A stretch of DNA of 64,000 bases from a virus (IMGVR_UViG_3300025030_000039:252878-316877), one strand, 5' to 3'; positions 21,557-26,867 are shown, counted from the stretch's first letter. Numbers and translations are program-made. The notes: generated from the sequence alone by a model not told the origin.

Positions 21557-22048
21557 ATGAAGTATATAAAGGAGTATGAAGAGTTTGTTTATGAGACAGA
21601 TTATGATTATTTTTATAATTCACAGGATAATGATGAAGATATTGATAATTCAAAAGAGGATTTGTTAGATGATATGAAAAATTGGGATGATAAAGAGATA
21701 CGAAAACTTAGTATAGAGGCATATTATAAAAGTTTTAAAGTGTATAGTTTAAATCAAGATGTTGATAGATTGTTAAAGAATTTTGTGGATGTATATTCGA
21801 TGTTTATAAGAAGATGTTTTAAAGAAGAGAGAAAGATTGATTATAATAGAGATATAAATTTTTTTAGAAAGTATAAAGATAGATTAAATGATATGATTAA
21901 AAAATCATTAGAAAAAGATATTAATAAGTTGTTTGCAGATAAAAAATATGATATAGGAGTTTATTATAGAAAGTTTGTTAATAAAAAGTTATATAATAAA
22001 TATGAGCATTTATTTAATGCTGATGATTTTGGAATGTTAGATAATTAA
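21557..22048 (+). CDS. conserved-termini family member (MKYIKEYEEFVYE ... YEHLFNADDFGMLDN)
   Basis: Start taken at the internal ATG (21557) of ORF 21452..22048 where the family N-terminus begins. Confidence 0.65.
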   Translation: MKYIKEYEEFVYETDYDYFYNSQDNDEDIDNSKEDLLDDMKNWDDKEIRKLSIEAYYKSFKVYSLNQDVDRLLKNFVDVYSMFIRRCFKEERKIDYNRDINFFRKYKDRLNDMIKKSLEKDINKLFADKKYDIGVYYRKFVNKKLYNKYEHLFNADDFGMLDN

Positions 22049-22062
22049 AATAAAGAAGTGAT

Positions 22063-22485
22063 ATGAAGTATATAAAGGAGTATGAAGAGTTTATATTAGA
22101 TGAAGGAGTTTTTCAGAAGTTGAAAGACTGGGGTAGTTCATTGTTTAGAAGTACAGTTGGAAAGATGTATATAAAGTATAATAATCCTAAGAATATGATT
22201 GAGAAGAAGTTTACTAATGCTGCTGATGTTATATTAGATGGTGTAGATGAATTTTTAAATAGTAATGGAGAGTTATTATGGGATAAGTTGTTAAAAGAGA
22301 AGAAAGAAGAGGTTAGAAATTTTATAGCTACGTATAATGCATCATCTAGATCTCATAAGACTAATGAACAAGAGTTATATGATTTTATTAAGTATGCTCT
22401 TAATAAGAAAGAAGATGATGGAGATGATGGTAAGTCTTATAACTCATATAGTAGTAAATCATATAAAACTAAATTTAGAAGATGA
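22063..22485 (+). CDS. family member with N-terminal motif only (MKYIKEYEEFILDE)
   Basis: ORF; lacks the C-terminal NADDFG motif. Confidence 0.6.
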   Translation: MKYIKEYEEFILDEGVFQKLKDWGSSLFRSTVGKMYIKYNNPKNMIEKKFTNAADVILDGVDEFLNSNGELLWDKLLKEKKEEVRNFIATYNASSRSHKTNEQELYDFIKYALNKKEDDGDDGKSYNSYSSKSYKTKFRR

Positions 22486-23279
22486 AATTTATATTAGAGT
22501 ATAAAGTTTTTGTTAATGATAATATTTTAAGAGATAAGATTATTGATATTTTTTCCAAAGTTGGAAAAGAAAGATATAATATTAAAGATATTAAAAAGAT
22601 TGTAGATAGTAAAAGTTTTAAAACATTAGATGATAAAGTAAAAGAGATATTAAATAGGTATTTTAATATTTATAATAGAGATAAAAATTTAGAATTTAAA
22701 TATATTATAGAAGAATTGAATAGGTATTTTCCTAAAGCTTTAGATAGACAAATGGATAATATAATAGATGATATAGGAGATGATATAGATGTACGTTTTT
22801 TTAATATAGAAGATGAAGAAGATATAAAATTTTTAGCTAAAGATATTGAAAAATATATTAATAATTTTTTACTATTTATTTATATCGATAATAATGATAT
22901 ATGGGTAGAGAGATTAAATTTATTAAAGGTTAATGATAAATTTGTAGATTATTTTATTGATTATGTATTAGAAGAATTAGATATGAAACATATTGATAAG
23001 ATTAATTCAGAAAATTATAAAGCATTAATAAAAATATTTAATATTGATAATGGTTATATTAAATTTAAAAGTGAAGGAATATTTTATAAAAAGATTGCAG
23101 AAAATGTTTTTAGGTATATTGTAAAGAGTATTGATAAAAAATTAATTGAAAATTTAGATGAAATTATTAAGCAAAATAATTTTATAGTTCCATATTTTAA
23201 AGATGTATTAACTCCAGAGCAGATTAAAAAGTATGATCATATTTTGAATGCAGACGACTTTGGATTTTTAGATAATTAA
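22482..23279 (+). CDS. conserved-termini family member (MKFILEYKVFVND ... KKYDHILNADDFGFLDN)
   Basis: ORF. Confidence 0.65.
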   Translation: MKFILEYKVFVNDNILRDKIIDIFSKVGKERYNIKDIKKIVDSKSFKTLDDKVKEILNRYFNIYNRDKNLEFKYIIEELNRYFPKALDRQMDNIIDDIGDDIDVRFFNIEDEEDIKFLAKDIEKYINNFLLFIYIDNNDIWVERLNLLKVNDKFVDYFIDYVLEELDMKHIDKINSENYKALIKIFNIDNGYIKFKSEGIFYKKIAENVFRYIVKSIDKKLIENLDEIIKQNNFIVPYFKDVLTPEQIKKYDHILNADDFGFLDN

Positions 23280-23296
23280 AAAAAAAAAAGAATATA

Positions 23297-24133: not shown

Positions 24134-24148
24134 AAATAAATTAATAAA

Positions 24149-24928
24149 ATGAAGTACATAAAGGGATATGAAGATTTTATAACAAATAGTTTAAATGAAG
24201 CTAAAATTAAAGATGGAGAGAATGGATTAGAGTTTATAGCTAGATTAACTAAAATTACAATTGATAATTTAATTAATAGAGATATTTTAAATTTAGGTGT
24301 TTATGCATTAACTGAATTACCAAAAGAGATAGGAAATTTAACAAAATTAACTATGCTACGTTTATATAGTAATAAGTTGACTGAGTTGCCAAAGGAGATA
24401 GGTAATTTAACTAACTTAACATATTTAGATTTAACTAACAATAAGTTGACTGAGTTGCCAAAAGAGATAGAAAATTTAACTAACTTAACATATTTATCCT
24501 TAGGTAGTAATCCGTTGAAGGAATTTCCAAAGGAAATAGGAAATTTAAAGAATTTAGAAGAATTAAATTTAAATAGAAATCAGTTGGTTGAGTTGCCAAA
24601 GGAAATAGGAAATTTAACAAAATTAACAATTTTAAATTTAGGTAGTAATAAGTTTAAGGAGTGGCCAAAGGAGATAGATAAATTAAAAAATTTAACACAT
24701 TTATATTTACATGATAATGAGTTGGAATCAATACCTGATGAGTTGGTTGAGCGGAAATGGTTTTATGAGTTAGATTTAAATAGATTGAGTGATGAAGTAT
24801 GGTTAAGGTTGTTTAAGATGAATGGAATTAAGGTGATAAAGCATAAAGATTTTCCAAAAAAATTAAGGAGTAGTAAAGAAATTAATGATATAGCGAATGC
24901 GGACGATTTTGGATTTTTCGATAATTAG
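24149..24928 (+). CDS. leucine-rich repeat protein with family termini (MKYIKGYEDFITN ... DIANADDFGFFDN)
   Basis: LRR units as above. Confidence 0.85.
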   Translation: MKYIKGYEDFITNSLNEAKIKDGENGLEFIARLTKITIDNLINRDILNLGVYALTELPKEIGNLTKLTMLRLYSNKLTELPKEIGNLTNLTYLDLTNNKLTELPKEIENLTNLTYLSLGSNPLKEFPKEIGNLKNLEELNLNRNQLVELPKEIGNLTKLTILNLGSNKFKEWPKEIDKLKNLTHLYLHDNELESIPDELVERKWFYELDLNRLSDEVWLRLFKMNGIKVIKHKDFPKKLRSSKEINDIANADDFGFFDN

Positions 24929-25749
24929 ATTAATCCAAAGTCATCAGCATTTATTAGATGGTTGTATTTGTTGTTTAAATATGAGTTAGTAATTACTATT
25001 TTTTTATATCTATTAAAATTAGATATATTTTTATTTAATATTTGATCAACTTTATTTATAATAATATCTTTAAAATAATCTTTAAATTTATTGTAATATG
25101 ATTTATTAATATTTGAATAAGATAGTTTAAATTCAATAAGTTTATTATTTAAAAAATATAAATAGTTTATATTATCGTGGATATTTCCCCATTCTTCATT
25201 TATACGTTTAAGTATAAAGTTACAAAAAGAATCAAATGTTTCTTTATAGAATTTTAAAAGTTCATTTTCTTCTAATGATATATCTTTTTTAAAATATTCT
25301 TCTATAAAAAAATCACAACTAAAAAGTTTTCGTTCTTGTTTATTATCGAATTTTTTATTTATATCTGTTTTGAAATATTTAATTTTATTTTCAATTATTA
25401 AATCTTTATATTTATCGTATAGATTTGGAAAATATTTATTTAAATTTTCTTCTATTGCTGAAAAGTGTTTAATATTAAAGCTATAATCTTGATTTTTATG
25501 TATATAGTTATCTAAAACTAAATCTAATCTTTCTTCTAATGTTAAATGAGTATATTCAATAATGATATCAAAAGGATAATCTTTTTCTTCAAATTCACTA
25601 GAAGATATATCTTTAAGAATTTCTATAGCAGCACTTGTTCGTATAGGATCTTTTTCTTTAGATTTTTTAAAATATGATTCTTCATTAATTTTAAATCTAT
25701 TATTATAGACTTCGTTTAAAAATTCTGTATATTTAAAAATATATTTCAT
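24925..25749 (-). CDS. conserved-termini family member (MKYIFKYTEFLNE ... NKYNHLINADDFGLI)
   Basis: ORF, convergent with the LRR genes. Confidence 0.65.
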   Translation of the reverse strand: MKYIFKYTEFLNEVYNNRFKINEESYFKKSKEKDPIRTSAAIEILKDISSSEFEEKDYPFDIIIEYTHLTLEERLDLVLDNYIHKNQDYSFNIKHFSAIEENLNKYFPNLYDKYKDLIIENKIKYFKTDINKKFDNKQERKLFSCDFFIEEYFKKDISLEENELLKFYKETFDSFCNFILKRINEEWGNIHDNINYLYFLNNKLIEFKLSYSNINKSYYNKFKDYFKDIIINKVDQILNKNISNFNRYKKIVITNSYLNNKYNHLINADDFGLI

Positions 25750-25757
25750 ATTATAAT

Positions 25758-26867
25758 TTAGTTATCAAAGAATCCAAATTCATCTGCATTATGTAATTCT
25801 TCAAATTCTTTTTTAAGTGTATCTGATAGTTTATTAATAGCTTTGAGTTTTCCTATAATAGTAAGATCTTTTTTAATTCTATTTCTCCAGTAGTCGTCAA
25901 TTGCAGATTGAGTTAAATTAGGATTTTTTGAATAATTAAAATTTTTAGGTTCTACATTTAACGGAGCTCCTATTAAATTTTTTAAATAATTATTACTAAC
26001 ATCAAATTTATTTTTATTAGGTTCTAGAAATTCTATATTGAATCCGAAGTCTATTGATACCAAAAAGCTATTTGATAAATCTAGATTACTATCGAAAAAA
26101 TATGTATTTGTAGATTTATTTATTTGTGATGGATTTAATTTTAATTTAACTATTTCTAATTGTATTTTTTCTAAATTATTTATAATATTTTTAGCATCTT
26201 TACTATTACCAATAATTTTAAATTTAGGTAATGCTCCATTTAAAAATGATTTAAAAGAAATTGTAGAAGTATATAAATTATTTTTTGAATCTACATTATA
26301 AATAAGAGCATTTTCTATATTTAAAGTTGAACCTGGATATACACACCTTTCATATTCATATGTTCTAAATGTATAGAAAGTTCCGGTTCTTTTTACATTT
26401 AATGTAAATTCTTGTATATTTTTTTCAATTGTTTCAGGATCTATTTTTGTTATTCTTTTAGGAAAATCTATACCAAAAAATCTCCATTGAGCTTCTACTT
26501 CTTTTTGTACTAATTTTTTTATACTGTTTTTATAAGTATATCCATCATAAAATTCTGTATCTCTTTGTATAAATACTACAAAATCTAAAGGATAAAATAC
26601 GAAACAATCCCATTCTTTAGGATCATAATAATTAAAAAGATCTTTCGTTGAAAAATATTTACCATGTATTTGTGTTGAGATATTAATAAATTTATTTCGT
26701 GTCCAGTAATCAAACGCATCATTATTTAGAATTTTTACGATTATAAAGTCTTTTTCACTATTAATAATAGAACCATTTTTAATCGATTGACTAGAAATTT
26801 TTTGAAAATTTGCATATAAGTCTATATCACTTCTTTTAAATTCTTCGTATAACGGTAAATATTTCAT
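25758..26867 (-). CDS. conserved-termini family member (MKYLPLYEEFKRS ... EELHNADEFGFFDN), 369 aa
   Basis: ORF. Confidence 0.65.
   Translation of the reverse strand: MKYLPLYEEFKRSDIDLYANFQKISSQSIKNGSIINSEKDFIIVKILNNDAFDYWTRNKFINISTQIHGKYFSTKDLFNYYDPKEWDCFVFYPLDFVVFIQRDTEFYDGYTYKNSIKKLVQKEVEAQWRFFGIDFPKRITKIDPETIEKNIQEFTLNVKRTGTFYTFRTYEYERCVYPGSTLNIENALIYNVDSKNNLYTSTISFKSFLNGALPKFKIIGNSKDAKNIINNLEKIQLEIVKLKLNPSQINKSTNTYFFDSNLDLSNSFLVSIDFGFNIEFLEPNKNKFDVSNNYLKNLIGAPLNVEPKNFNYSKNPNLTQSAIDDYWRNRIKKDLTIIGKLKAINKLSDTLKKEFEELHNADEFGFFDN

Follow-up and report, generated by a model that had tools for sequence, protein, structure and literature searches.

In a 64,000-nucleotide window of viral DNA (the whole stretch analyzed, IMGVR_UViG_3300025030_000039:252878-316877), an array of genes at positions 21557-26867 encodes proteins that share a 13-residue N-terminal leader and, in most cases, a short C-terminal box (C-box), on either side of a variable middle part (hereafter, cargo). 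Judging from sequence, the leader would serve as a capsid address of the phage T4 type, trimmed by a protease in most members and marking a large set of injected proteins, a reading to which a probability of about 0.55 was assigned. The window is part of LR756500.1, a 462,018-bp record of an "uncultured phage" (GC content ~23-29%) that carries no annotation; window positions 20000-30000 are 100% identical to positions 10149-20149 of the record. The window spans the ends of the record, and record coordinates plus 9851 give window coordinates. Positions below refer to the window unless marked as record positions, and genome-wide counts cover the whole of LR756500.1.

Occurrence and conservation of the N-terminal leader

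A six-frame motif scan located the leader, MKYIKEYEEF(I/L)xE and close variants, at nine open reading frame (ORF) starts of the window, five on the plus strand (21557, 22063, 22482, 23297 and 24149) and four on the minus strand (ORFs 24925-25749, 25758-26867, 2864-3259 and 3282-3527, starting at 25749, 26867, 3259 and 3527). An earlier note on this DNA had listed at least ten ORFs with a common N-terminus; nine carry close variants, and the tenth, at 8834, has only a divergent form (MKKLEHVQLFEDFTKNLNE). The ORFs listed there at 24925 and 25758 exist as members, but lie on the minus strand. Seven of the ten window members are adjacent (21557-26867) and three are found further away.

The same leader was detected throughout the phage genome. 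A regular expression retrieved 29 ORF starts, and a position-specific scoring matrix (PSSM) made from the leaders, scanned over the 143,509 six-frame positions of the genome, gave approximately 36 matches above 13 bits, all of them at ORF starts (0-39 codons past a stop codon), while the best score away from ORF starts was ~9 bits or less. An origin by chance or low complexity was rejected on the basis of this restriction of high scores to ORF starts. When weaker variants were included, the family comprised ~37 members at ~15 loci, with arrays at record 11.7-17 kb (the window array studied here), 198-201 kb and 313-318 kb.

The consensus spans 13 residues (M-K-Y/F-I/L-x-x-Y-x-E/D-F-L/I/V-x-E). 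In a logo of 29 leaders, M1, K2, Y/F3 and I/L4 were followed by Y7 (28/29), F10 (28/29), [LIV]11 (25/29) and E13 (21/29). An [LIV]xE triplet ending at residues 11-15 was present in 25 of 37 members, as compared with 67 of the 592 other ORFs (11%), and was mostly followed by A, S or N. On a helical projection of this sequence, the hydrophobic residues 3, 4, 7, 10 and 11 would fall on one face, with Lys and Glu on the opposite one.

Codon usage was variable within these fixed residues: K2 was encoded by AAG in 8/29 members (10% genome-wide), Y3 by TAC in 8/22 (8% genome-wide) and E6 by GAG in 9/15 (8% genome-wide), and all four alanine codons were used in the C-box. Synonymous variation inside both motifs was at or above the genome-wide level. 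As synonymous codons vary while the residues stay fixed, selection acts on the peptides, and both terminal motifs are conserved at the amino-acid level, not as DNA. Recent gene duplication, which had been named in advance as an explanation capable of overturning the proposal, does not account for this conservation, which is confined to the termini and lies at the amino-acid level with varied synonymous codons.

Similarity to the T4 capsid-targeting sequence and head machinery

The leader had been likened to the capsid-targeting sequence (CTS) of T4 internal proteins, quoted as MKTYQEFIAE. The quotation is accurate: IPII and IPIII (translated from AF158101) both begin with this decapeptide followed by A, and IPI starts with MKTFKEF, its cleavage following ITE at residue 19. 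The first 10 residues of the T4 CTS suffice for packaging; by mutagenesis, residues 4 and 7 were associated with targeting and residues 8 and 10 with processing, and Asp at position 10 blocked processing while targeting was kept (PMC9026906). Leader residues Y7, F10, [LIV]11 and E13 match T4 Y4, F7, I8 and E10 with identical spacing, and the FILD of the member at 22063 corresponds to the Asp case of T4. When the family PSSM was applied to a 20-kb segment of T4, the IPII and IPIII starts were the top two positions. The match is a sequence similarity over 7-10 residues, a length at which homology is not demonstrable.

A T4-type head module was identified in the same genome, all on the minus strand of the record and all with Pfam hits above the gathering scores: a gp23-type capsid protein (record 225025-226677; PF07068, 8e-34), a gp21-type prohead protease of 632 amino acids (aa) (record 226725-228623; N-terminal Peptidase_S77, 6e-11) and a gp20-type portal (record 228664-230346; Portal_T4, 2e-70). 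A sheath gene was located at record 188206-191316. The protease showed 28% identity to T4 gp21 (BLASTP, E = 3e-11), with conservation of LGELNHP/LGELDHP and GVSSRG/HISSRA, the aligned segments that contain His85 and Ser140 of gp21, which we take to be its catalytic residues. Residues 13-16 of the protease read LIIE, like LIE-9 of gp21. The protease domain is fused to a scaffold-like region of ~450 residues, in which the density of [LI]xE was no outlier within this Glu/Ile/Leu-rich proteome.

The capsid protein was 22% identical to T4 gp23 (2e-11), and its nearest relatives (30-39% identity) were those of 630-735 kb huge phages, Lak phages, Tenacibaculum, Chryseobacterium and Flavobacterium jumbo phages, PAU and cyanophages. 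Because of these relatives, the capsid sequence indicates that the phage belongs to a Bacteroidota-type branch of the T4 superfamily.

Diversity of the cargo

The middle parts of the proteins had been described as unrelated. In all-against-all BLASTP comparisons with the 16 N-terminal and 20 C-terminal residues masked (E < 1e-3), this was confirmed for most of the family, but similarity was found among six leucine-rich repeat (LRR) members (58-67% mutual identity) and for one pair (record 302083 and 214183). Cargo lengths ranged from 50 to 491 aa.

Five genes of the array lie on the plus strand. Member 1 (21557..22048, 163 aa) carries the leader MKYIKEYEEFVYE and the tail KYEHLFNADDFGMLDN. Member 2 (22063..22485, 140 aa; leader MKYIKEYEEFILD) has Asp in place of Glu13 and no C-box. 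Member 3 (22482..23279, 265 aa) combines the leader MKFILEYKVFVND and the tail KYDHILNADDFGFLDN with ORFan cargo. Members 4 (23297..24133, 278 aa; leader MKYIKEYEEFILE then A, tail EDIANADDFGFFDN; Pfam LRR_14, 1e-33) and 5 (24149..24928, 259 aa; leader MKYIKGYEDFITNSLNE then A, tail NDIANADDFGFFDN; Pfam LRR_4, 4.8e-27) carry LRR cargo, as had been noted beforehand, with tandem LxxLxLxxN repeats that are recognised by LRR profiles. On the minus strand follow member 6 (24925..25749, 274 aa; leader MKYIFKYTEFLNE, tail KYNHLINADDFGLI), convergent with member 5 and sharing 4 nt with it in the stop regions, and member 7 (25758..26867, 369 aa; leader MKYLPLYEEFKRS, tail EELHNADEFGFFDN), which lacks Glu13 and has ORFan cargo. 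Independent gene calls on the record agree with all seven lengths. Away from the array are the divergent member at 8834..9430 (plus strand, 198 aa; tail KYNHILNANDFGLI) and two leader-only members on the minus strand, 3282..3527 (81 aa; MKYIYEYDEFLNE) and, directly downstream of it, 2864..3259 (131 aa; MKYISEYKEFINE).

Members 4 and 5 were the only ones in the window with a Pfam domain, the others (member 1 included) having no Pfam or PHROG family. Member 7 matched only itself among 5.8 billion proteins, and member 3 only itself both in an exhaustive scan of 1.84 billion representative proteins and in tblastn against 50,697 phage records. A synthetic profile of the N-terminal 18 and C-terminal 24 residues retrieved nothing from the 5.8 billion proteins, a search so insensitive that it missed the phage's own proteins. 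Elsewhere in the genome, leader-bearing cargo included a DUF2201 metallopeptidase and VWA protein, encoded beside a MoxR-like AAA ATPase, an R2K-type ATP-grasp protein, a polynucleotide-kinase-type 3'-phosphatase (PNK3P/HAD, 2e-21) and a 421-aa protein with a KxDG motif recognised by eye; the remainder had no family, many being ORFans. Isoelectric points were mixed, and the mature parts lacked the basic bias typical of T4 internal proteins.

In an AlphaFold2 (AF2) model of member 4 aligned with member 5, the LRR solenoid core was predicted with high confidence (predicted local distance difference test, pLDDT, >90), whereas residues 1-16 and 270-278 had pLDDT <50 and the last ~60 residues 45-63. 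Given these low values at both ends of the model, the termini look like flexible appendages outside the fold. A single-sequence AF2 model of the 369-aa member 7 was uninformative (pLDDT 30.7).

The C-terminal box

Most of the ten window members had been said to share a C-terminal motif, and seven do: (KYxH[LI])xNADDFG[FLM][FLI](DN) was found immediately before the stop codon (at most 2-4 residues off) at 8834-9430, 21557-22048, 22482-23279, 23297-24133 and 24149-24928 on the plus strand and at 24925-25749 and 25758-26867 on the minus strand, and was missing from the members at 22063, 2864 and 3282. The box is ~17 residues long (K-Y-x-H-[LI]-x-N-A-D-D-F-G-[FL]-[FLI]). Genome-wide, 13-15 ORFs end in it, and it occurs without the leader at only two places (record 411169-411819 and 322993), both probable gene fragments; 22 members have the leader and no such tail. 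No comparable tail was found on other ORFs of the phage genome. The tail sequences showed no consistent [LIV]xE ahead of the box, and the C-box should therefore stay on the mature protein.

The box had been called unexplained, and it still is, as no homologue, consistent cleavage site or partner was identified. An F-box or PRANC identity was rejected for lack of any Pfam match at E <= 1 in the seven window C-box proteins. A sliding-clamp-binding tail of the T4 gp43/gp33/gp55 type was likewise discarded: the last exon of the phage PolB ends in ...NLIYSSSLF, and no C-box-like end was found on the replication and transcription ORFs of the phage, including its DnaB-like helicase. In IMG/VR and JGI metagenomes, no match was obtained with an exact DNA pattern for NADDFGFFDN-stop. 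The shorter NADDFGF pattern gave 28 matches in IMG/VR, all internal or in spurious ORFs except for one DnaB-like C-terminus, NADDFGFDFI, which as one of 28 matches is roughly at chance level.

Two acidic-aromatic C-terminal tails reminiscent of the C-box were observed outside the family. The T4-type large terminase of the phage (record 194236-196122, minus strand; L004:44236-46122) ends in ...EDGSLFFDIYDII, a tail that is not kept in its relatives (Tenacibaculum phage PTm1 and IMG/VR contig L040), and the DnaB-like helicase just mentioned, from an unrelated IMG/VR contig (L036 3888-3908, minus strand), ends in ...DDDGFNADDFGFDFI.

The leader in other viral contigs

A degenerate DNA pattern for MK[YF]I..Y.[DE]F gave 80 matches in IMG/VR, 37 of which were at genuine ORF starts. 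At positions left unconstrained by the pattern, N-terminal matches showed K5 in 20/26, E8 in 17/26 and [LIV]xE in 10/26 cases, as opposed to 4/25, 3/25 and 0/25 for matches that were not N-terminal. Typical examples (MKYIKLYEEFVNEA...) were located on unrelated cargo, in contigs of 40-508 kb with 30-37% GC. Two of the leader contigs encode homologues of the portal (L075) or sheath (L040) of this phage, in shared gene order, and L122 is a fragment of the same phage. The exact DNA pattern for MKYIKEYEEF had no match in IMG/VR; tblastn with an IMG/VR leader-bearing ORF retrieved nothing from cultured and deposited phages, and no leader-type ORF was present in the first 50 kb of PTm1.

A related design was found in contigs L129-L135 (IMG/VR 33000299xx; 181-256 kb, 22% GC), which harbor at least 15 tandem ORFs with 4-nt stop/start overlaps (for example, L129 4451-11959 and 17266-18675). 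Most start with MKYIK[TKR]FE and all end with [AT]NKFN[IL], the cargo being ankyrin, LRR or of no recognised type. These ORFs share with the phage family an MKYIK-type leader, unrelated cargo, an extreme C-terminal A-x-x-F-(G/N)-(L/I), and an arrangement in tandem arrays of an AT-rich jumbo viral genome, but their leader lacks F-[LIV]-x-E and their tail is NKFN[IL] instead of NADDFG.

A promoter-like motif upstream of the family

The second most enriched 8-mer upstream of ORFs was ATATATAA, found ahead of 62 ORFs versus 6.3 expected (~10-fold). The corresponding motif [AG]ATATATA[AT], mostly located 10-26 nt ahead of start codons, precedes the genes for the capsid, the protease-scaffold protein, the sheath, three proteins of tail size (1500-1800 aa) and the endolysin at window 26965. 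Judged by these downstream genes, the motif would be a late promoter. The late promoter of T4 is TATAAATA, which the phage motif resembles.

Family genes were strongly associated with this motif: 12 of 34 had their own copy, versus 51 of 592 others (p = 4e-5), and 28 of 34 lay in a tightly spaced co-directional unit headed by it, versus 146 of 592 others (p = 1e-11). In the window, GATATATAA (21531..21539, plus strand) lies 17 nt ahead of member 1, which opens the plus-strand array, and GATATATAT (26887..26895, minus strand) heads the minus-strand pair, 19 nt upstream of member 7. Further copies were detected upstream of the 8834 member (AATATATAA, 8809..8817, plus strand) and at the 3282-3527 member (3544-3552, minus strand). 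The MKYIK codons of the member at 23297 also spell AATATATAA (23301-23309, plus strand), an overlap that looks incidental. A DNA motif or promoter inside the coding start was rejected as the source of the leader, since the codons of many members destroy the 9-mer while the residues are kept.

Other genes in the window

Several further features were observed in the window. An 827-aa protein with major-vault-protein domains (MVP_shoulder, 4.5e-27; Vault_3; Band_7/SPFH), unusual in a phage, is encoded at 30755-33238 on the minus strand. Five minus-strand ORFs (39448-40722, 28780-29559, 53266-54066, 54747-55934 and 57455-58366) share an NAD/ADP-ribose theme, with a PARP catalytic domain (1.6e-21), a Macro domain and, by eye, ADP-ribosylglycohydrolase-like, nicotinate phosphoribosyltransferase-like and NadR/Nudix-like ORFs. 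A stand-alone ClpP (1e-30), an AAA ATPase and an R2K ATP-grasp protein are encoded at 54191-54742, 36558-38042 and 38045-38941, all on the minus strand, the ClpP gene sitting among the genes of NAD metabolism and outside the head module.

A PIN/PhoH-like gene (48717-51979, minus strand) is apparently split by an intein with a homing-endonuclease-like ORF, in the pieces 51077-51979 (ending in ...GKAGCLYPDEK), 49738-51030 and 48717-49790 (containing ...SSHNTGKT); the PolB gene is also in pieces, between endonuclease-like ORFs (record 248-264 kb). Three additional small paralogue families were noted. The members of one (3627-4258, 5746-6518 and 8415-8666, plus strand) are ~83-104 aa long and have a common C-terminal ...E[AI]xx[FL]xxG[FL]xxG... 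segment; another consists of three tandem ORFs of 93-95 aa, Cys-rich near the C-terminus (41166-42018, minus strand), and the last of two ORFs of 151 and 166 aa that start with MKT[QE]...KTEK.LKKEK (19628-20900, plus strand). At 46731-47840 and 42786-43429 (both minus strand), the ORFs begin like Bacteroidota signal or lipoprotein sequences, which fits a Bacteroidota host, and a C-terminal region of the type IX secretion system type was recognised by eye; no Pfam match was found for 46731-47840. At window ~9700-9830, the junction between the end and start of the record, short tandem repeats are present, and the window as one exact string is absent from the circularised record, which suggests that the repeat copy number differs.

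Discussion

The results are best accommodated if the 13-residue leader is a T4-type capsid-targeting propeptide. As a short acidic amphipathic helix, it would attach freshly synthesised proteins to the scaffolding core of the growing prohead, and the gp21-type prohead protease would then remove it in most members by cutting after the Glu of (L/I/V)-x-E. The ~37 tagged proteins would thus be head-internal, carried in the virion and delivered with the DNA into the next host, as an expanded analogue of the hypervariable T-even internal proteins. As for the C-box, it would act as another short linear motif, borne on a flexible tail and kept on the mature protein; our best guess is that through it this subclass docks to a single shared partner, located in head or host. 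The two motifs, their confinement to the protein ends, selection at the amino-acid level, the T4-type head module and the common promoter-like motif are observed in the sequence; that the proteins are targeted, cut, packaged and ejected, and that the C-box has a role, is what we infer from it.

The parallel with T-even phages extends to a short N-terminal leader on otherwise unrelated proteins, an aromatic-x-E-F-I-x-E pattern ending in a gp21-type (L/I)xE site (a candidate site in 25 of 37 members here), a gp21/gp22/gp23/gp20-type head module, and a lysis-gene neighborhood, as T4 ipII/ipIII lie beside gene e and the array analyzed here abuts a GH19 endolysin gene. There are also differences. 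The T4 leader has 10 residues instead of 13, T-even phages have 3-10 members instead of ~37, and T4 internal proteins lack the C-terminal box that a subset carries here; in this phage the cargo reaches 491 aa, includes LRR and enzyme domains and has no basic bias, a scaffold-like extension of considerable length follows the protease domain, and packaging and cleavage are predicted. Among giant phages, phiKZ, 201phi2-1 and SPN3US also load dozens of proteins into the head. In these phages, propeptides are cut after Glu by a gp21-related protease and paralogues with identical N-termini occur (PMC5694885), but the cleavage motif is (S/A/G)-x-E, propeptides often exceed 100 residues, no common 13-residue leader has been reported and the capsid lineage is another.

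A concept model for the C-box is offered by encapsulins, in which a short conserved terminal peptide loads unrelated cargo into an HK97-fold shell; they differ in showing no sequence similarity and having no protease or scaffold, and the cargo genes of the phage lie away from the shell gene, which is outside the window.

The proposal that the leader is a capsid-targeting signal withstood every computational test able to refute it, with the reservation that the cleavage Glu is absent in approximately a third of the leaders (12/37, with D, N, K or S instead). Other observations also weigh against it. In this uncultivated phage, the maturation site of the capsid protein is uncertain, LYE-44 being only a candidate and no [LI]xE occurring at the T4-aligned position. 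The L129-L135 family keeps only MKYIKxFE, with no [LIV]xE. The late assignment of the promoter-like motif is drawn only from the genes that it precedes, which include homing-endonuclease-like and other genes. An RNA-repair-type phosphatase, an ATP-grasp enzyme and a protein with hydrophobic segments are without precedent as T4-type internal proteins, and the role suggested for the C-box is conjectural.

The leader reading could be extended, tentatively and with clearly less credit than we give to capsid addressing itself, to a two-ended address code, in which the T4-type leader loads the proteins and the C-box, as a linear motif not described before, marks an injected LRR/ankyrin-type effector subclass for retention, ordered ejection or docking to a hub that the effectors share in host or phage. 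The leader would then be conserved from T4 to Bacteroidota-type huge phages, with NKFN[IL] as the counterpart of the C-box. It is unlikely, in turn, that the proteins stay unpackaged as cytoplasmic adaptors, with LRR cargo (in the L129 contigs, also ankyrin cargo) that binds targets of host or phage, a C-box that ties them all to one machine, for example an AAA+/ClpP protease, and a leader that acts as a second docking or regulatory helix. The C-box would then work like the C-terminal peptide with which SspB binds ClpX, or like the F-box-like PRANC at the C-terminus of poxvirus ankyrin proteins. As modules, LRR and ankyrin repeats are characteristic of substrate receptors, and the combination of repeat cargo, flexible linker and extreme C-terminal box is shared with poxvirus ankyrin/PRANC proteins, F-box/SOCS-box receptors and the SspB tail. 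The low-confidence, flexible tail on which AF2 places the C-box, the ClpP (1e-30) and AAA ATPases encoded in the same window, and the near-complete restriction of the box to leader-bearing proteins (two probable gene fragments apart) also agree with adaptors. Nevertheless, no F-box, PRANC or other box family was detected at E <= 1, the box has only ~10-17 residues and the host is bacterial; most cargo does not consist of repeat proteins, and adaptors account neither for the agreement of the leader with the T4 CTS, residue for residue, beside a gp21-type protease nor for the link with the promoter class of structural genes.

The presence of unrelated middles between conserved ends, at ~15 loci plus tandem arrays, could also be expected if the ends were DNA homology arms for swapping cargo cassettes and the peptides had little function, and such swapping has been proposed for the internal-protein loci of T-even phages (PMC3012670). 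Such arms should show third-position conservation, but the opposite was found, with synonymous codons free inside the motifs and residues fixed; moreover, they would be only ~39 and 30-50 nt long, and the leader is kept as a peptide in distant contigs of 30-37% GC. Recombination handles are accordingly improbable, and cassette exchange may be a by-product of the arrangement rather than its cause. As little weight is given to ordinary fast-evolving paralogues of one duplicated ancestor, with termini that belong to one fold or oligomerisation element and have no addressing role: tandem arrays and the 58-67% identity of the LRR subgroup fit this origin, but cargo of 50-491 aa with unrelated Pfam folds (LRR, DUF2201 plus VWA, ATP-grasp, PNK3P/HAD) does not, nor do the 22 members with a leader and no tail; in addition, an LRR solenoid holds its two ends at a distance from each other, and here neither end is predicted to pack. 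Slightly less probable still is that the C-box mimics the acidic-aromatic tails of replication or packaging machines (clamp-, polymerase- or portal-binding) and directs proteins to them. The ends of the terminase (EDGSLFFDIYDII) and of the IMG/VR helicase (DDDGFNADDFGFDFI) point in this direction, yet the terminase tail is absent in PTm1 and L040, PolB ends in ...SSSLF, the phage's own DnaB-like helicase has no such tail, and a single C-terminal match among 28 is about what chance would give. All of these alternatives leave unexplained why, in a phage with a gp21-type protease, the leader should match the T4 CTS.

In T-even phages, polymorphic internal proteins with a CTS tag are already established (PMC3012670, PMC9026906). 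No description of the leader family or of LR756500 was found in the literature, and three features appear to be undescribed: a huge phage of Bacteroidota type with a repertoire of ~37 members that carry a 13-residue leader, the occurrence of that leader across metagenomic viral contigs, and the conserved C-terminal box.

If the leader loads proteins into the capsid, one 13-residue pattern would read out the injected-protein repertoire of this phage and of many metagenomic relatives, and would point to candidate first-strike effectors of anti-defence or host takeover, most of them ORFans. It would also mean that the capsid-targeting logic of T4 has been kept between phages of the T4 superfamily that are only very distantly related (22% capsid identity), and would provide a portable tag for the loading of foreign proteins into large capsids. 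The C-box is strongly selected, and identifying the partner it binds would bring to light a new step in the assembly of the head, in ejection or in the manipulation of the host.

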